NCBI RefSeq assembly: GCF_003334815.1
Contig: NZ_QOWO01000001.1
Length of the DNA: 64,000 nt
From: Escherichia coli
GTDB taxonomy: Bacteria > Pseudomonadota > Gammaproteobacteria > Enterobacterales > Enterobacteriaceae
Reading direction: 5' to 3' (one strand)
The notes beneath the pieces are model-generated. The model did no database searches. It worked only from the letters and a program-made list of their open reading frames with translations, and was not told the DNA's origin. Of this stretch, positions 52,660-61,268 are shown one piece after another; the first letter of the stretch is position 1, and every line of letters starts with the position of its first letter. Position numbers and translations under genes: made by a program.

Positions 52660-52780
52660 GTGCGGCCTGAAAAACAGTGCTGTGCCCTTGTAACTCATCA
52701 TAATAATTTACGGCGCAGCCAAGATTTCCCTGGTGTTGGCGCAGTATTCGCGCACCCCGGTCTAGCCGGGGTCATTTTTT
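52660..52780 (+). ncRNA. arcZ: ArcZ (RyhA/SraH) Hfq-dependent sRNA, convergent with arcB
   Basis: Sequence GTGCGGCCTGAAAAACAGTGCTGTGCCC...GCGCACCCCGGTCTAGCCGGGGTCATTTTTT matches recalled ArcZ (121 nt) with terminal hairpin CCCCGGTCTAGCCGGGG plus T6; 3' end overlaps arcB stop. Confidence 0.9.
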
Positions 52781-55108
52781 AGTGGCTTTTGCCACCCACG
52801 CTTTCAGCACTTCTACGTCGTGACGCCACTCTTCTTTCATCTCTTCAATCCATTCACCGACGTTATCTTCCCAGGCCGGAAGGTCAGGAGACTGAATTTG
52901 CTGACCCAGCTGTTGCAGATGGCGTAACCCCACTGACCCCGCCGCACCTTTAATTTTATGTCCTTCCTCAACAATGCCTTTTTTATCCTGCGCCGTCAGA
53001 TTCGACTCCAGCACGCTGACATAGCCCGGCATCATCTTCTCAAACACCGCTAACCCGTCGGTGATCAGCTTCGGTCCTACAAGTTCGAGATACTGTTCCA
53101 GCATGGGAATATCGAGCAATGCTTCTGATTTACTGTTCTCTTCTGTCGTCACCGTACTCTCCTCATCATCCTGGGTATCCCAGAATTTCTTGATCATCGC
53201 GGTTAGCGCCGGAACAGAAAGCGGCTTACTCAGCACATCATCCATTCCAGCATTGAGGTACTCTTGTTTGTCTTTCAGCACGTTAGCGGTTAAGGCCACC
53301 AGCGGCGGTAAATCCTCGCGCGGATAACGTTTCGTCAGTTCACGAGAGATATCCAGCCCGGTCATATCTGGCAACTGAATATCCAGCAACACCAGGTCGT
53401 ATTCGCCCGGTTTAAACATCTCCAGCGCCGCCTTGCCGGTCATGGCGACATCAACGCTGTTACCTAATTTTTCCAGCACAGAACGCGCAACAATCACGTT
53501 CAGTTCAATGTCTTCCACCAGCAGCACATTCAGCGCCGGTAAAGGCATATCGTCTTCATCAAACGCATCATCGACCTCTTCTGCTACCGACGGTGCGTGG
53601 ATCGTCAACGTAAAGGTTGAACCTTTGCCCTGTTCGCTGGTAACCGTAATATCGCCGCCCATATTTTTCGCCAGACGACGAGAAACGGCCAGACCAATAC
53701 CGGTGCCGGTGGCAGGTTTACCGCCATGACTGTCTTTCACCTGGTAATACATGGCGAAAATTTTATCCAGCTCATCCTGCGGAATGCCGATACCAGAGTC
53801 TTCCACTTCAAAATGCAGCATATCGCCTTCATCGTAGCGCACGCGCACGGTAACCTGGCCTTGCTGGGTGAATTTGACGGCGTTACTGATGAGGTTCCAC
53901 AGGATCTGCCGTAAACGCGTCCCGTCGGTAATGACCTGATGCGGTAATGGCAGCGTCGGCTCCAGGTTAAAGCGCAATCCTTTTTGTTGCGCCTGCAATG
54001 CGGAGAGATTTTCCAGATCGGCAAGGAAGCTGGTGAAATCAACCGGTTGATTATCAAGCTGGACCTTGCGCCGTTCCATCTTATCCATGTCGATAATATC
54101 GTTAAAGATATTCCCCAGCGTGACGGCCGAAACATGGATGGTCTTGAGATATTTTTCCTGCTCGGCGGTGAGTTCGGTATCCAGCAGAATGCGGCTCAGA
54201 CCGACGATACCGTTCAGCGGTGTACGCAATTCGTGACTGATGGTGGAGATAAACGTCGTTTTGTCGCGGCTGGCCCGTTCAAGCGCATCCTGATACCGCT
54301 TACGCTCGGTAATGTCGCGACCAAAGCCCATCAAACCGTGACGTTTACCCACGCGGTCGTAGTACGGCACTTTACGGATTTCAAAGCAGGCTTTGCGCCC
54401 GTCCGGGTAATCCAGCCACTGTTCATAGGTCAGTGACACATTATGACGGAACACTTTTTCATCGGTTTCAATGACTTTTGCGGCGGCTTCCGGTGAGTAA
54501 ACATCAGCAGGTTTCAGGTGAACCAGTTGTTTTTCGCTTTTTCCGGTCAGCAGCTCCATCGCGCGGTTACAGCCGGAAAACTCTTTATCTTCGTTACGAT
54601 AAAAAACCAGGTCGGGTGAAGCATCAAGGAAGGAACGTAAGAATGAGGATTGCTGCTCGAGCTGAATTTGTGTCTCTTCGCGCTCTTTGATTTCAATTTT
54701 CAGTTGGCCGAAGGTTTCCTGCAGTTCTGCTTCCGCTTTTTCACGAACGGCAATTTCCTGATTTAGCTGGGCAATATTATCTTTTAACTGAACGTTGAGG
54801 CTCAAATCGCGCTCGCGCATCTCCTCCAGTTTTTGCACCAGCCGTGACAGACGTTGTCGTGACTCCTCCAGTTGCTCGACGACCACCGATAGAAAGTAGA
54901 CCGCCCACGGCGTAATCAGCAAACCAAAGAAGATAGAACGAATAACATCAATGCTTTCGACCTGACCATGCAGCACCATGGTTACCGCCATTTGTACCAC
55001 AATGGCAAGAACGACGAGGGCCAGCGCCAGCAACATTGAGAAGCGCACCAGACCTAACTTCATCATCAGGTCAACATAATACTGCGCCAGCAGACGAATT
55101 TGCTTCAT
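52772..55108 (-). CDS. arcB: Aerobic respiration control sensor histidine kinase ArcB
   Basis: ORF track 778 aa; TM anchor, PAS, kinase H-box ISHELRTPLN, receiver and HPt domains. Confidence 0.97.
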   Translation of the reverse strand: MKQIRLLAQYYVDLMMKLGLVRFSMLLALALVVLAIVVQMAVTMVLHGQVESIDVIRSIFFGLLITPWAVYFLSVVVEQLEESRQRLSRLVQKLEEMRERDLSLNVQLKDNIAQLNQEIAVREKAEAELQETFGQLKIEIKEREETQIQLEQQSSFLRSFLDASPDLVFYRNEDKEFSGCNRAMELLTGKSEKQLVHLKPADVYSPEAAAKVIETDEKVFRHNVSLTYEQWLDYPDGRKACFEIRKVPYYDRVGKRHGLMGFGRDITERKRYQDALERASRDKTTFISTISHELRTPLNGIVGLSRILLDTELTAEQEKYLKTIHVSAVTLGNIFNDIIDMDKMERRKVQLDNQPVDFTSFLADLENLSALQAQQKGLRFNLEPTLPLPHQVITDGTRLRQILWNLISNAVKFTQQGQVTVRVRYDEGDMLHFEVEDSGIGIPQDELDKIFAMYYQVKDSHGGKPATGTGIGLAVSRRLAKNMGGDITVTSEQGKGSTFTLTIHAPSVAEEVDDAFDEDDMPLPALNVLLVEDIELNVIVARSVLEKLGNSVDVAMTGKAALEMFKPGEYDLVLLDIQLPDMTGLDISRELTKRYPREDLPPLVALTANVLKDKQEYLNAGMDDVLSKPLSVPALTAMIKKFWDTQDDEESTVTTEENSKSEALLDIPMLEQYLELVGPKLITDGLAVFEKMMPGYVSVLESNLTAQDKKGIVEEGHKIKGAAGSVGLRHLQQLGQQIQSPDLPAWEDNVGEWIEEMKEEWRHDVEVLKAWVAKATKK

Positions 55109-55203: not shown

Positions 55204-56133
55204 CTACTCCGTTGGAGGTAGCCACGGACGTCCCAGCGCCGATCCCTGTACGCCATGTTCATTCAGATAGCGATCCAGCTCGACCATTCCCGTCCATCGA
55301 TTTTCGCACCACAGCGGAGCAAGCAGCGTCGGGCGACGGGCGCTGGCGGAAATGCGGTGGTAGATCACTTCCGGTGGCGTATGGCGAATCATTTCTCCGG
55401 CAGTGAGCGTGTAATCCTCCAGTTCAATACCGTTCAAACGCCCCGCTTCCCAGGCTTTCGCCATAATGCTGCCTTTCACAATATGCAGCGGATGCAGCTT
55501 TATGCCGTCCACGCCGGTTTCAACCACTCGCTCCAGCGTTTGCAAACATTCAGCCTGCCCTTCGCCAGGCAGGCCGACAATTAAGTGGGAACACACCTTC
55601 AGCCCGCGCTGACGTGCCAGCTGGGTTGTACGCTGATAACAGGCAAAATCATGGCCGCGGTTGATGCGATGCAGTGTTTTGTCGTGGGCGGTTTGTAGCC
55701 CCAGCTCCAGCCACACTTCGTAACCCTGGTCCTTATATTCGCAAAGCAGATCCAGCACCGCATCCGGCACGCAGTCCGGGCGGGTACCCACACACAAACC
55801 GACAATATTGGCCTGGCTCACCGCCTGCTGATACATAGAACGCAGCACCTGAACTTCCGCAAAGGTGCTGGTATACGCCTGAAAGTAGGCCAGATAGCGT
55901 TTAGCGCGGTTAACTAAATTCGCCTGGTGCGCCAGTTGCTCGGCAATGGAACGATGCTGCTGCGCTTCATCGGCAAACGAGGCAACATTACAGAATGTGC
56001 AGCCACCACGCCCGATGGTACCGTCACGGTTAGGGCAGCTAAAACCGCCGTGCAGCGTCAGCTTATGCACCTTTTGCCCATAACGACGGGTGAGATCACC
56101 ACCAAACATATTGACTAATTTCTGTAACTGCAT
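55204..56133 (-). CDS. yhcC: Radical SAM protein YhcC
   Basis: ORF track 55204..56166; start trimmed to MQLQKLVNMFGG (309 aa); Cys motif CPNRDGTIGRGGCTFC. Confidence 0.9.
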   Translation of the reverse strand: MQLQKLVNMFGGDLTRRYGQKVHKLTLHGGFSCPNRDGTIGRGGCTFCNVASFADEAQQHRSIAEQLAHQANLVNRAKRYLAYFQAYTSTFAEVQVLRSMYQQAVSQANIVGLCVGTRPDCVPDAVLDLLCEYKDQGYEVWLELGLQTAHDKTLHRINRGHDFACYQRTTQLARQRGLKVCSHLIVGLPGEGQAECLQTLERVVETGVDGIKLHPLHIVKGSIMAKAWEAGRLNGIELEDYTLTAGEMIRHTPPEVIYHRISASARRPTLLAPLWCENRWTGMVELDRYLNEHGVQGSALGRPWLPPTE

Positions 56134-56807
56134 AATCTGATAGACCGCGCCTTGAAAAGAGGCCAAAGCCTGCCATTTTTAGCTCAATTCGGCGATGACC
56201 TGGATCAATCGTCCCGGCCTGCTTTTATCAACTGCATAATCAATCAAAATTACCGAAATTTCATGCATAATCACATAAATCACTTTTGCTTATCTTGTGT
56301 CAGATTTTTTTATCTCCTGATGGATTTTAGGCAAAAACAGTAGCATGAAACGTCATTACCAATTAAGGCAGTATAAAATGCTGGTTTTGTCGTCAGTTCA
56401 AGGCAGGATAAGGGTTAACACACCTTTATGACAGTCAGGAATTGACTGTTTCTCTAACGACTTCCCTTTTAGCCTTAAAGATAAAATCCATTTTAATTTC
56501 AGTCATTTAATAAAGAATTTTGCGCTAAAGCACATTTCTGTACCAATAAGCTTGCCATTTGACCTGTATCAGCTTTCCCGATAAGTTGGAAATCCGCTGG
56601 AAGCTTTCTGGATGAGCAGCCTGCTCATCATATTTATGCAGTAATTGAGATCCCCTCTTCACCGTATTAACCGATGCGAAAAGGACAACAAGGGGGCGAA
56701 TGCGAGGCGCGCGTATGACACGCAAACCCCGTCGCCACGCTCTTTCTGTGCCCGTGCGCAGCGGTTCGGAAGTGGGGTTCCCGCAGAGCCTGGGGGAGGT
56801 TCACGAT

Positions 56808-59800
56808 ATGTTGTACGATAAATCCCTTGAGAGGGATAACTGTGGTTTCGGCCTGATCGCCCACATAGAAGGCGAACCTAGCCACAAGGTAGTGCGTACT
56901 GCAATACACGCACTGGCCCGCATGCAGCACCGTGGCGCGATTCTCGCCGATGGTAAAACCGGCGACGGTTGCGGCTTGCTGTTACAAAAACCGGATCGCT
57001 TTTTTCGCATCGTTGCGCAGGAGCGCGGCTGGCGTTTAGCAAAAAACTACGCTGTCGGGATGCTCTTCCTGAATAAAGATCCTGAACTCGCCGCTGCCGC
57101 ACGCCGCATCGTTGAAGAAGAACTGCAACGCGAAACCTTGTCGATTGTGGGCTGGCGTGATGTCCCCACTAACGAAGGCGTGCTGGGTGAAATCGCCCTC
57201 TCCTCTCTGCCACGCATTGAGCAAATTTTTGTGAACGCCCCGGCAGGCTGGCGTCCACGCGATATGGAGCGCCGTCTGTTTATCGCCCGCCGCCGCATTG
57301 AAAAGCGTCTCGAAGCCGACAAAGACTTCTACGTCTGTAGCCTGTCGAATCTGGTGAACATCTATAAAGGTCTGTGTATGCCGACGGATCTGCCGCGCTT
57401 TTATCTGGATCTTGCGGACCTGCGTCTGGAATCGGCCATTTGCCTGTTCCACCAGCGCTTCTCCACTAACACCGTACCGCGCTGGCCGCTGGCGCAACCG
57501 TTCCGCTATCTGGCGCATAACGGTGAAATCAACACCATCACCGGTAACCGCCAATGGGCGCGTGCGCGTACTTATAAATTCCAGACACCGCTTATCCCTG
57601 ACCTGCACGACGCCGCACCGTTCGTCAACGAAACCGGCTCTGACTCCAGTTCGATGGATAACATGCTGGAACTGCTGCTGGCAGGCGGGATGGATATCAT
57701 CCGCGCCATGCGTCTATTAGTACCACCCGCCTGGCAGAACAACCCGGATATGGACCCGGAACTGCGTGCCTTCTTTGACTTTAACTCCATGCATATGGAG
57801 CCGTGGGATGGCCCGGCGGGCATCGTGATGTCCGACGGTCGTTTTGCCGCCTGTAACCTCGACCGTAACGGTCTGCGTCCGGCGCGCTACGTCATCACCA
57901 AAGATAAGCTCATCACCTGCGCCTCTGAAGTCGGTATCTGGGATTACCAGCCTGACGAAGTGGTCGAAAAAGGCCGCGTCGGGCCAGGCGAACTGATGGT
58001 TATCGACACCCGCAGTGGGCGTATTCTGCACTCGGCAGAAACCGATGACGATCTGAAAAGCCGCCATCCATATAAAGAGTGGATGGAGAAAAACGTCCGC
58101 CGACTGGTACCGTTTGAAGATCTGCCCGATGAAGAAGTGGGTAGCCGCGAACTGGACGACGACACGCTTGCCAGCTACCAGAAACAGTTTAACTACAGCG
58201 CGGAAGAGCTGGACTCCGTAATTCGCGTACTGGGCGAAAACGGTCAGGAAGCGGTCGGTTCGATGGGCGATGATACCCCATTCGCCGTGCTCTCCAGTCA
58301 GCCGCGCATTATTTACGACTACTTCCGCCAGCAGTTTGCCCAGGTGACTAACCCGCCAATCGACCCGCTGCGTGAAGCGCATGTTATGTCGCTCGCCACC
58401 AGTATCGGTCGTGAAATGAACGTCTTTTGCGAAGCAGAGGGCCAGGCGCACCGTTTAAGCTTTAAATCGCCGATTCTGCTCTACTCCGATTTCAAACAGC
58501 TCACGACGATGAAAGAGGAGCACTACCGCGCAGATACGCTGGATATCACCTTTGACGTCACTAAAACCACGCTCGAAGCGACAGTCAAAGAGCTGTGCGA
58601 CAAAGCCGAAAAAATGGTACGTAGCGGCACCGTGCTGCTGGTGCTCTCCGACCGGAATATCGCTAAAGATCGCCTGCCGGTTCCAGCCCCGATGGCGGTT
58701 GGCGCGATCCAGACCCGTCTGGTCGATCAAAGCCTGCGTTGCGATGCCAACATCATCGTCGAAACCGCCAGCGCCCGCGATCCGCACCACTTCGCCGTGT
58801 TGCTGGGCTTCGGCGCGACGGCTATTTATCCATACCTTGCCTATGAAACGCTGGGCCGCCTGGTAGACACCCATGCGATTGCCAAAGATTATCGTACCGT
58901 GATGCTCAACTACCGTAACGGCATCAACAAAGGCTTGTACAAAATCATGTCCAAAATGGGCATCTCCACCATCGCCTCTTACCGCTGCTCGAAACTGTTT
59001 GAAGCGGTCGGTCTACACGATGATGTAGTGGGCCTGTGCTTCCAGGGGGCGGTCAGCCGCATTGGTGGAGCAAGCTTTGAAGACTTCCAGCAGGATCTGC
59101 TGAATCTGTCGAAACGTGCCTGGCTGGCGCGTAAGCCCATCAGCCAGGGCGGTCTGCTGAAATACGTCCACGGCGGCGAATACCACGCCTACAACCCGGA
59201 CGTGGTGCGCACGCTGCAACAAGCGGTACAAAGCGGCGAGTACAGCGACTATCAGGAATACGCGAAGCTGGTTAATGAGCGTCCGGCAACCACGCTGCGC
59301 GATCTGCTGGCAATTACGCCGGGTGAAAACGCGGTCAACATTGCTGATGTTGAACCGGCAAGCGAACTGTTTAAACGCTTTGATACCGCCGCGATGTCTA
59401 TCGGCGCGTTAAGCCCGGAAGCCCACGAGGCGCTGGCGGAAGCGATGAACAGCATCGGCGGTAATTCGAACTCCGGTGAAGGCGGCGAAGACCCGGCGCG
59501 CTACGGCACCAACAAAGTGTCGCGCATCAAGCAGGTGGCTTCCGGTCGCTTTGGGGTTACTCCGGCGTATCTGGTCAATGCCGACGTCATTCAGATTAAA
59601 GTCGCCCAGGGCGCGAAGCCAGGCGAAGGCGGTCAGTTGCCGGGTGATAAAGTCACGCCTTACATCGCCAAACTGCGCTATTCGGTGCCCGGAGTGACGC
59701 TGATCTCCCCGCCGCCGCACCACGATATCTACTCTATCGAGGACTTAGCGCAGCTCATTTTCGACCTCAAGCAGGTTAACCCGAAAGCGATGATCTCCGT

Positions 59801-61268
59801 GAAGCTGGTTTCCGAACCGGGAGTAGGCACCATCGCGACTGGCGTGGCAAAAGCTTATGCGGACTTGATCACCATCGCAGGCTATGACGGCGGCACCGGC
59901 GCAAGTCCGCTTTCATCGGTGAAATACGCAGGCTGTCCGTGGGAGCTGGGGCTTGTTGAAACCCAGCAGGCGCTGGTTGCTAACGGCTTGCGTCACAAGA
60001 TCCGTTTGCAGGTCGATGGCGGCCTGAAAACGGGTGTCGATATCATCAAGGCGGCGATTCTCGGCGCAGAAAGCTTCGGCTTCGGCACTGGCCCGATGGT
60101 GGCGCTCGGCTGTAAATATCTACGTATTTGCCATCTGAACAACTGCGCAACGGGTGTAGCAACTCAGGATGACAAACTGCGTAAGAACCACTATCACGGC
60201 CTGCCATTCAAGGTGACGAATTACTTTGAGTTTATCGCCCGTGAAACCCGCGAGCTGATGGCACAGCTTGGCGTAACACGTCTGGTGGATCTGATTGGTC
60301 GCACCGACCTGCTGAAAGAGCTGGACGGTTTCACCGCCAAACAGCAGAAGCTGGCGCTGTCGAAGCTGCTGGAGACTGCCGAACCGCATCCAGGTAAGGC
60401 ACTCTACTGCACCGAAAACAACCCGCCGTTTGATAACGGCCTGCTGAACGCGCAGTTGCTGCAACAGGCGAAACCGTTTGTCGATGAGCGCCAGAGCAAA
60501 ACCTTCTGGTTCGATATTCGCAACACCGACCGTTCTGTCGGCGCGTCGCTTTCAGGCTATATCGCCCAGACGCACGGCGATCAGGGGCTGGCAGCCGATC
60601 CTATCAAAGCGTACTTCAACGGCACCGCAGGCCAGAGCTTCGGCGTGTGGAACGCGGGCGGCGTGGAACTGTACCTGACCGGTGATGCCAACGACTATGT
60701 CGGTAAAGGCATGGCGGGCGGCTTAATCGCCATTCGTCCTCCGGTTGGTTCCGCCTTCCGCAGCCATGAAGCAAGCATTATCGGCAACACCTGCCTGTAT
60801 GGCGCGACCGGTGGTCGTCTGTATGCCGCAGGCCGCGCGGGTGAACGTTTCGGCGTGCGTAACTCCGGTGCTATCACCGTGGTAGAAGGCATTGGCGACA
60901 ACGGTTGTGAATATATGACGGGTGGTATCGTCTGCATTCTGGGTAAAACCGGCGTTAACTTCGGTGCGGGCATGACCGGCGGTTTCGCTTACGTTCTCGA
61001 TGAAAGCGGCGATTTCCGCAAACGCGTTAACCCGGAACTGGTCGAGGTCTTAAGCGTTGACGCTCTGGCGATCCATGAAGAGCATCTGCGTGGTCTTATC
61101 ACCGAGCATGTGCAGCATACCGGCTCTCAGCGCGGTGAAGAGATTCTGGCGAACTGGTCAACCTTCGCCACTAAATTTGCGCTGGTTAAACCGAAGTCCA
61201 GTGATGTAAAAGCACTGCTGGGTCACCGTAGTCGTAGCGCAGCTGAGTTGCGCGTGCAGGCGCAGTAA
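56808..61268 (+). CDS. gltB: Glutamate synthase (NADPH) large subunit
   Basis: ORF track 56700..61268 (1522 aa); start set to Met37 [15 protein letters not shown] to match 1486 aa (an in-frame Met at 56715 would give 1517 aa); Ntn amidotransferase Cys follows the propeptide. Confidence 0.93.

Follow-up and report, generated by a model that had tools for sequence, protein, structure and literature searches.

Where does translation of the glutamate synthase gene gltB begin in Escherichia coli, and what is encoded in the long spacer that separates it from the divergent gene yhcC? These questions are raised by a 674-bp interval (56134-56807) of the 64,000-nt stretch of contig NZ_QOWO01000001.1 that we analyzed (the window, to whose positions all coordinates refer). 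An earlier note, made from the sequence alone, had described this interval as regulatory DNA followed by an ambiguous gltB start. Its boundaries agree exactly with the annotated yhcC-gltB spacer, as RefSeq has the start codon of yhcC at 56133 and that of gltB at 56808. Between 54083 and 58083 the window is identical, base for base, to K-12 MG1655 (the window position equals the K-12 coordinate minus 3297917), and 55900-57100 is matched at no less than 95% identity by 5417 of 5426 complete E. coli genomes.

The spacer is very probably the known gltBDF control region of E. coli K-12, arranged in four layers, with gltB translated from 56808. Beside yhcC, the short 5' untranslated region (UTR) of that gene would lie next to a divergent small RNA (sRNA), the candidate G0-10702 (56147-56224). 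In the second layer, ArgR, Lrp, IHF and CRP sites between 56230 and 56536 would act on a weak sigma-70 promoter that sends out a transcript from 56591. An untranslated leader of 217 nt (56591-56807) would form the third, and in the fourth, translation from 56808 would yield a protein from which an 11-residue propeptide is removed, exposing the catalytic N-terminal Cys. The promoter architecture and the RefSeq start are already known. The data considered here show the start codon, the map of sites, the conservation of the leader and the hairpins described below for the leader's 5' part and for the sRNA; an action of the leader after transcription is our inference. The conserved structure of the 217-nt leader, including a hairpin that we call P1, and the sRNA candidate had both been overlooked in the earlier note.

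Comparative evidence for the gltB start at 56808

As had been noted before, and as open reading frame (ORF) analysis bears out, the gltB frame is open from 56700 and contains three in-frame ATGs, at 56700, 56715 and 56808, which would give products of 1522, 1517 and 1486 amino acids. In each of the three E. coli lineages compared, it remains uninterrupted from 56700 onward. The three ATGs had been listed as candidates; only 56808 is conserved in relatives, and it is already the RefSeq start. We compared 80 gammaproteobacterial gltB loci for the start and 42 Enterobacterales loci for the leader. In every one of the 80, protein similarity begins at the residue encoded by 56808 or the next one, and an ATG equivalent to 56808 is present, lying one codon further upstream in the more distant loci. 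Most of them carry an in-frame stop 3-45 nt upstream of this conserved ATG (in one example the stop is followed directly by SLGRFTDM), and the stretch from the conserved 5' leader motif to the ATG measures 202-266 nt, in lengths that are not multiples of 3.

We found no conserved N-terminal extension running from 56700 or 56715: stops interrupt it in most of the 80 loci, and an ATG equivalent to that at 56700 occurs in 19 of the 42 leaders, 4 of which have it in the gltB frame, which leaves 38 leaders where it is missing (23) or lies in another frame (15). In four genera the codon is ACG or ACA, and the conserved nucleotides that follow it fall, from leader to leader, in each of the three frames. 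An in-frame ATG at the 56715 position, 93 nt upstream of the conserved start, occurs in E. coli and one Citrobacter only.

The ribosome-binding signals likewise favor 56808. The ATG at 56808 is preceded at a spacing of 6 nt by the Shine-Dalgarno sequence GGGGGAGG (56792-56799, plus strand), which lies inside the block AGAGCCUGGGGAGGUUCAC, invariant in the 42 leaders; its predicted pairing with the anti-Shine-Dalgarno sequence (-12.0 kcal/mol) places it in the top 0.6% of AUGs in the window. At 56700 the corresponding sequence, AAGGGGG, pairs at -10.5 kcal/mol at a spacing of 2 nt, which is too short for use, and at 56715 GAGG pairs at -5.9 kcal/mol at a spacing of 6 nt. Both upstream ATGs (56700-56702 and 56715-56717) fall inside the leader stem P3 and its loop. 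From the 42-leader comparison they appear to be by-products of the conserved leader RNA, in frame by chance in Escherichia, and not functional starts. The comparative evidence argues strongly that the true gltB start is 56808, which opens a coding sequence of 1486 codons for amino acids (56808-61268, plus strand; RefSeq and conservation) with its propeptide at 56808-56840 and its catalytic Cys codon at 56841-56843.

We weighed two ways in which the upstream ATGs might matter. Translation from 56715 (the old 1517-aa annotation) or from 56700, with cleavage of a 42- or 47-residue propeptide, would be in keeping with the frame that stays open in three E. coli lineages, with the GAGG 6 nt upstream of 56715 and the predicted unpaired state of that start codon, with the 56715 start retained in the annotation of one 2021 study, and with the long propeptide of Azospirillum GltB, in which residue 28 of chain 6s6s is aligned to query residue 39. 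We nevertheless regard it as very unlikely, given an extension that is not conserved and is cut by stops, ATGs that are mostly missing or out of frame and that lie within a conserved RNA stem-loop, the cramped Shine-Dalgarno spacing at 56700, and the RefSeq choice of 56808. We give next to no credence to regulation of gltB by a conserved leader peptide or small upstream ORF. Such regulation could draw on the peptide from the 56700-equivalent ATG that is common to Escherichia, some Citrobacter and Enterobacter, and on a two-codon ORF, AUG-CAG-UAA (Met-Gln-stop, 56637-56645), that sits in an invariant single-stranded block with its AUG and CAG nearly invariant. Yet the distance from the 56700-equivalent ATG to the next conserved block spans all three classes modulo 3, the ATG itself is lost as described above, and the mini-ORF lacks both a conserved stop (TTA, TTT or TCA in several genera) and a preceding Shine-Dalgarno sequence. 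We rejected a conserved upstream ORF on the variation of frame and ATG among the 42 leaders.

Minor initiation at 56715 may occur in E. coli, where that start codon is predicted to be unpaired and has a GAGG at 6 nt; a search for initiation-site profiles or a nascent N-terminus of gltB found none, with no gltB entry in the supplements of PMC4909307 and PMC13245402. The ambiguity raised in the earlier note is settled in favor of 56808 and persists in practice, since the Term-seq annotation of Adams et al. 2021 starts gltB at K-12 3354632, which is 56715 in the window.

The propeptide and the catalytic cysteine

The catalytic Cys had been placed 11 residues after Met37, and this holds: counted from a Met1 at 56700, Met37 is encoded at 56808 and residue 48 is the Cys (TGT, 56841-56843). 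The propeptide is 11-12 residues long in 80 of 80 loci and ends in D-N ahead of C-G-F-G. Processing of the N-terminus whichever ATG serves, also proposed before, is borne out by the amidotransferase domain and by solved homologues, both of which begin at this Cys. The PF00310 GATase_2 match (E = 3.5e-179) covers model positions 1-420 on residues 48-461 of the 56700-start frame, and in the solved glutamate synthase chains 1ea0, 2vdc and 1llw residue 1 is the aligned Cys. By homology with these chains, mature E. coli GltB is taken to begin at the catalytic Cys after propeptide removal. N-terminal proteomics of mature GltB, which had been suggested as a check on the start, cannot discriminate among the candidates because the propeptide is removed for every one of them.

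A short propeptide before the nucleophilic Cys is a likeness to other N-terminal nucleophile (Ntn, class II) glutamine amidotransferases, such as the glutamate synthases of Azospirillum and Synechocystis; the E. coli propeptide has 11 residues, whereas that of Azospirillum is longer. PurF is another class II glutamine amidotransferase with a removed propeptide.

A conserved and structured gltB leader

The 217-nt leader (56591-56807, plus strand) is the best-conserved part of the spacer, as alignments and a conservation profile indicate. Across 23 Enterobacteriaceae species, its 10-nt bins are mostly 70-100% identical versus 25-60% for the footprinted Lrp/IHF region, and three E. coli lineages differ at 2 positions in 56507-56830 versus about 50 in 56184-56506. 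The leader is recognizable in 42 loci from the Enterobacteriaceae, Erwiniaceae, Yersiniaceae, Pectobacteriaceae and Hafniaceae. A search of 55900-57100 against Rfam 15 (E up to 1) returned one chance-level match (E = 0.4; 17.7 bits against a gathering threshold of 128). The leader also stands apart in composition. The spacer had been called about 670 bp of AT-rich DNA, which is right for 56134-56590 (37.6% GC) and wrong for 56591-56807 (56.7% GC, rising to 65.7% in 56700-56807; whole window, 51.7%). The GC-rich third of the spacer is transcribed leader rather than promoter.

Near its 5' end the leader forms hairpin P1 (56611-56629, plus strand), with 8 bp and a 3-nt loop, followed by the invariant sequence CAUAUUUAUGCAGU in a terminator-like arrangement. 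Compensatory changes support P1 in 5 of its 7 aligned pairs. In a five-helix model of the leader, 92.8% of cells in the comparison are paired versus about 35% with slid partners, and none of 500 shuffles reaches the observed covariation score. P1 contributes most of this signal, together with a single pair in the helix formed between the 5' end and GAUU (56649-56652). RNAalifold applied to the 42-leader alignment recovered P1 and invariant helices only, because the middle of the leader aligns poorly. By the covariation in P1, and partly in the 5'-end helix, the leader appears to be a structured RNA.

Downstream of P1 lies the nearly invariant block CAUAUUUAUGCAGUAAUUGAGAUCCCCUC (56630-56657, plus strand), which includes the mini-ORF at 56637-56645 and a C-rich, anti-Shine-Dalgarno-like element, CCCCUC, at 56652-56657. 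Further on, pair counts define stem P3 (GGCGA...UCGCC; 56690-56740, plus strand), built around a variable hairpin. Term-seq placed an RNA 3' end at K-12 3354657 (56740), directly before CUCUUUCUG (Adams et al. 2021). That end was labelled 'internal, 25 nt into gltB' because the annotation used in that study starts gltB at 3354632 (56715); with the RefSeq start it falls in the 5' UTR, 68 nt upstream of the ATG.

E. coli departs from its relatives at several places in this RNA. A hairpin of about 15 nt, GCAAGUCCUCAACACUUGU, at approximately 56658-56668, is carried by all other genera and lost in E. coli, and its G-run and C-run elements have three lineage-specific changes: CCCUC to CCCCUC, AAGAGGG to AAGGGGG and GGGGAGG to GGGGGAGG. 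Alifold on a subset suggested that UAUGCAGU pairs over a long range with the region of the start codon; we rejected this pairing because both sides are invariant, E. coli has no partner U and Hafnia is uncompensated. A column-pair scan offered GGCG:CGCC (columns 153-156 with 234-237), in a part of the alignment that is unreliable.

A predicted RyhB site and the possible outputs of the leader

The leader's 5' end contains a predicted pairing site for the iron sRNA RyhB (56596-56619, plus strand), identified by duplex energy and conservation. The nearly invariant GCUGGAAGC (56596-56604, +6 to +14) is the exact complement of RyhB nt 53-61, with one G-U pair, its partner segment being GCUUCCAGU, and RyhB nt 43-48 pair with UGAGCA in the 5' arm of P1. 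At -23.1 kcal/mol, this duplex ranks in the top 0.04% of 24-nt windows in the 64-kb window, and GCUGGAAGC is the best RyhB site in 37 of the 42 leaders. Scans with such 24-nt windows replaced unrestricted duplex folding of RyhB with the leader, which yielded long-range pairings that were worse than shuffles and meaningless. Photobacterium leaders have the same RyhB motif at other distances. In Aeromonas and Vibrio loci the complementarity, GCAAUGUC, lies at the start codon and engages another part of the RyhB core. In five Aeromonas and Enterovibrio loci (L067, L070, L075, L076 and L081), GCAAUGUC spans gltB -19 to +4 and is complementary to RyhB GACAUUGC, a segment through which RyhB also pairs with sodB. 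Outside the Enterobacterales, gltB thus shows complementarity to RyhB as well, though at another position.

GltBD is an iron-sulfur enzyme, which makes control by RyhB biologically sensible; it resembles the iron-sparing RyhB targets in this respect and in its conserved complementarity to the RyhB core. Control of glutamate synthase by FsrA, which acts on gltAB in B. subtilis, is analogous. Further analogues are S. aureus IsrR with gltB2 and V. cholerae RyhB, which is cited as targeting gltB1. Unlike pairing over the ribosome-binding site, the predicted E. coli site covers +6 to +29, about 200 nt from the start codon. On RyhB induction, gltB was listed among the genes with reduced ribosome occupancy (Table 1 value 1.06, p = 0.014) and unchanged mRNA (Wang et al. 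2015, PMC4666370).

How might pairing so far upstream reach the ribosome? In our proposal, RyhB would pair with GCUGGAAGC at the leader's 5' end and lower GltB synthesis under iron scarcity. This pairing would open P1, and the opened hairpin would shift the leader toward sequestration of the Shine-Dalgarno sequence by CCCUC or toward the premature 3' end at 56740, so that the C-rich element at 56652-56657, the early 3' end, or both would serve as outputs. The element can pair with the Shine-Dalgarno sequence (UUCCCU:GGGGAG) in 98.8% of cells, with one two-sided change only, and CCCUCUU can pair with an alternative partner, AAGAGGG at the foot of P3 on its 5' side, in 90.5%. On paper, these two partners would allow a switch.

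Several observations weigh against the RyhB proposal and the leader fold behind it. The duplex energy is matched by about 3% of random 330-nt segments, GCUGGAAGC can form a mini-hairpin of its own around a GGA loop, and the site's distance from the start codon is large. In PMC4666370 gltB was flagged as novel and left unvalidated, and the study reports false positives. The pairings of the C-rich element are conserved and showed no covariation; the helices other than P1 and the 5'-end helix are likewise conserved and uninformative; and the whole E. coli leader folds no more stably than its shuffles (z = +0.35). Finally, processing rather than termination may have generated the 3' end at 56740. 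A post-transcriptional role for the leader is likely; RyhB is the most probable single route to it, although the balance of our judgment is somewhat against this specific route.

What else could conserve this sequence? The leader might be kept as DNA, carrying downstream operators for regulators such as Nac, Fnr and GadE and no functional RNA. The long stretches CATATTTATGCAGT and AGAGCCTGGGGAGGTTCAC, invariant without covariation, would suit such operators, and PMC1784095 mentions further gltBDF regulators. We consider this improbable: the pairing in P1 survives many two-sided changes, as expected for an RNA helix but not for a site bound by protein, the leader is far better conserved than the experimentally mapped protein sites upstream of it, and a discrete RNA 3' end follows stem P3. 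Alternatively, the leader could work independently of RyhB, mainly as a transcription attenuator or by giving rise to a stable RNA of about 150 nt with its 3' end at 56740, or it could bind CsrA. The position of the Term-seq end after P3 and before CUCUUUCUG, the terminator-like P1 with its tail, and CCCUCUU:AAGAGGG as a possible anti-terminator on the 5' side of P3 all favor attenuation. Against this, neither U tract is canonical (P1 passes a lenient terminator scan with U tracts that are interrupted), and an end just 4 nt past the stem suggests trimming or processing. CsrA binds gltB RNA in Vibrio alginolyticus and strongly represses gltBD there, and GGA motifs occur in the GCUGGAAGC mini-hairpin and in the Shine-Dalgarno sequence; these two conserved motifs, however, stand about 195 nt apart, and the CsrA evidence comes from V. 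alginolyticus, not E. coli. An attenuator or CsrA-binding leader is a possibility we hold with reservations, and either is compatible with control by RyhB.

A conserved sRNA candidate divergent from yhcC

At the other end of the spacer lies G0-10702, a candidate sRNA of about 78 nt (56147-56224, plus strand; annotated to 56252), delimited by published ends and by folding. It is a candidate of Raghavan et al. 2011, annotated at K-12 3354064-3354169 (56147-56252) and divergent from yhcC, at the same locus and on the same strand as the RNA examined here. A plus-strand Term-seq 3' end at K-12 3354141 (56224) falls in its U run (Adams et al. 2021). Its 5' end was confirmed by 5'-specific RNA-seq; it was called narrowly conserved, reported (at second hand) as Hfq-dependent, with lower abundance in an hfq mutant, and described as having no Rho-independent terminator, and it was removed from EcoCyc in 2019.

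Its architecture comprises a 5' hairpin (56149-56163), the conserved single-stranded segment AAGCCUGCCAUUUUUAG, a terminator-like stem topped by the invariant GCGAUGACCUGGAUCAA, and a U-rich tail. MAFFT alignment with alifold misaligned the hairpins, so each of the 23 Enterobacteriaceae sequences was folded singly. The 5' hairpin forms in 23 of 23 (19 distinct sequences; mean z = -2.3). In the terminator-like stem, the sequence of the lower helix varies by genus yet still pairs, ahead of the U-rich tail (mean z = -1.8 over the 23 species), and the top of the stem, GCGAUGAC...GAUCAA, does not vary, even as far as Yersinia, Dickeya and Pectobacterium. As a terminator it is weak in E. coli (-9.8 kcal/mol). 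In contrast to the earlier descriptions of narrow conservation and a missing terminator, both the terminator-like stem and the 5' hairpin are kept in the 23 species. A scan for pairing between G0-10702 and the gltB leader gave GC-rich, non-specific matches only.

With a start of its own, a terminator and conservation, G0-10702 has, as judged from sequence and published ends, the attributes of an sRNA gene; its Hfq dependence and action in trans are putative. We put forward only tentatively, and think doubtful, the combined proposal that the leader is an undescribed, Enterobacterales-wide RyhB riboregulatory element and that G0-10702 is a genuine, conserved, Hfq-dependent sRNA that was wrongly de-annotated.

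Two colinear direct repeats (AAGCCTGCCATTT / AAGCTTGCCATTT and TGACCTGGATCAATCGTCCCG / TGACCTGTATCAGCTTTCCCG), offset by an 18-nt insertion, occur in the sRNA gene (at 56166-56216) and again at the gltB core promoter (at 56548-56580). They could stem from an ancient duplication, mark a binding site common to both, or be coincidental.

Promoter and regulator sites upstream of the leader

The description of a complex gltBDF promoter is confirmed by the published ArgR, Lrp, IHF and CRP footprints, which map to 56230-56536 (PMC1784095). The whole spacer had been taken as regulatory DNA, but only about 460 bp of it is promoter or regulatory sequence, the last 217 bp being conserved 5' UTR. The promoter characterized in E. 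coli K-12 (Paul, Mishra, Blumenthal and Matthews 2007, PMC1784095) is the same DNA, with no differences; the words 'leader', 'untranslated' and 'translation' are absent from the text of that study, and the 217-nt leader and the sRNA are untreated there. The gltBDF transcription start is assigned to 56591 because the ends of primers gltP1 and gltP2 are stated as -325 (56266) and +8 (56598) in PMC1784095.

On this numbering, the ArgR footprint (-361 to -318) covers 56230-56273; the three Lrp sites, centered at -246, -215 and -152 (56345, 56376 and 56439), cover 56338-56446; the IHF site (-113 to -75) covers 56478-56516; and the repressing CRP site (-76 to -55, center -65.5) covers 56515-56536 (all PMC1784095). 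The scans for Lrp, IHF and CRP sites that the earlier note called for, which we extended to ArgR, gave best consensus matches at these same places: ARG boxes at 56231-56248 and 56252-56269, an Lrp match at 56369-56383 (1 mismatch, centered on 56376), an IHF match at 56497-56509, and the CRP match TTTGCGCTAAAGCACA at 56519-56534. None of the four consensus scans was enriched over shuffles, and they could not have located the sites alone; the coincidence of the best matches with the published sites validates the transfer of coordinates from K-12.

The core promoter (56559-56591, plus strand), with hexamers that we read off the sequence and a start that is primer-derived, has a -35-like TTGACC (56559-56564) and a weak -10-like GATAAG (56580-56585). 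A scan of 56050-56900 for a consensus sigma-70 promoter (TTGACA, 16-18 nt, TATAAT; at least 9 of 12 matches) found 0 sites, and RNA polymerase alone gave no footprint at the gltBDF promoter (PMC1784095). The promoter is weak and activator-dependent, which fits the empty scan. Within E. coli, the ArgR/Lrp/IHF region is far more variable than the core promoter and leader. In E. coli AREA_497 (locus L083), a natural 9-bp deletion equivalent to 56268-56276 takes part of the second ARG box.

An exact 12-nt repeat, AACTGCATAATC, occurs at 56126-56137, across the yhcC start codon, and at 56230-56241, where it makes up the opening half of ARG box 1. The repeat hints that the yhcC start and the sRNA promoter have an additional ArgR-like half-site.

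The surrounding locus

The divergent neighbor of gltB, yhcC (55204-56133, minus strand; RefSeq mapping and ORF list), encodes a radical S-adenosylmethionine (SAM) protein. Some 2025-2026 RefSeq records rename it mnmL, 'tRNA modification radical SAM protein MnmL/YtqA', so that the neighbor is no longer uncharacterized in newer annotation. Its transcription start at K-12 3354077 (supplementary table, PMC7967276) corresponds to 56160 and gives a 5' UTR of 56134-56160 (minus strand). The divergent layout with a spacer of 650-715 bp occurs in 33 Enterobacterales loci; one Budvicia locus has a spacer of 881 bp, and those of Aeromonas measure 618-619 bp. Because this layout recurs across the Enterobacterales and in Aeromonas, the large spacer is an old arrangement and not chance.

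Beyond yhcC lies arcB (52772-55108, minus strand; RefSeq annotation), and adjoining it, inside the window, the sRNA ArcZ (52660-52780, plus strand; K-12 3350577-3350697), whose 3' end, strong in Term-seq, we used to check our reading of coordinates in the supplement.

Possible implications for nitrogen assimilation

The earlier observation at this locus is real and ordinary: the start question was settled in RefSeq and now has comparative backing. The choice of start has consequences for what is seen upstream of it. With gltB annotated from 56715, features of the leader are misclassified, and the 217-nt leader is hidden from the windows used in sRNA target prediction. Both the leader and the neighboring sRNA are structured and conserved, and most of their biology is still unstudied. 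A RyhB site that proved real would directly link iron sparing to the main route of nitrogen assimilation at low ammonia in enteric bacteria, and glutamate synthase, an enzyme central to nitrogen assimilation, would be tuned to the iron supply by an element 200 nt ahead of the gltB start codon.

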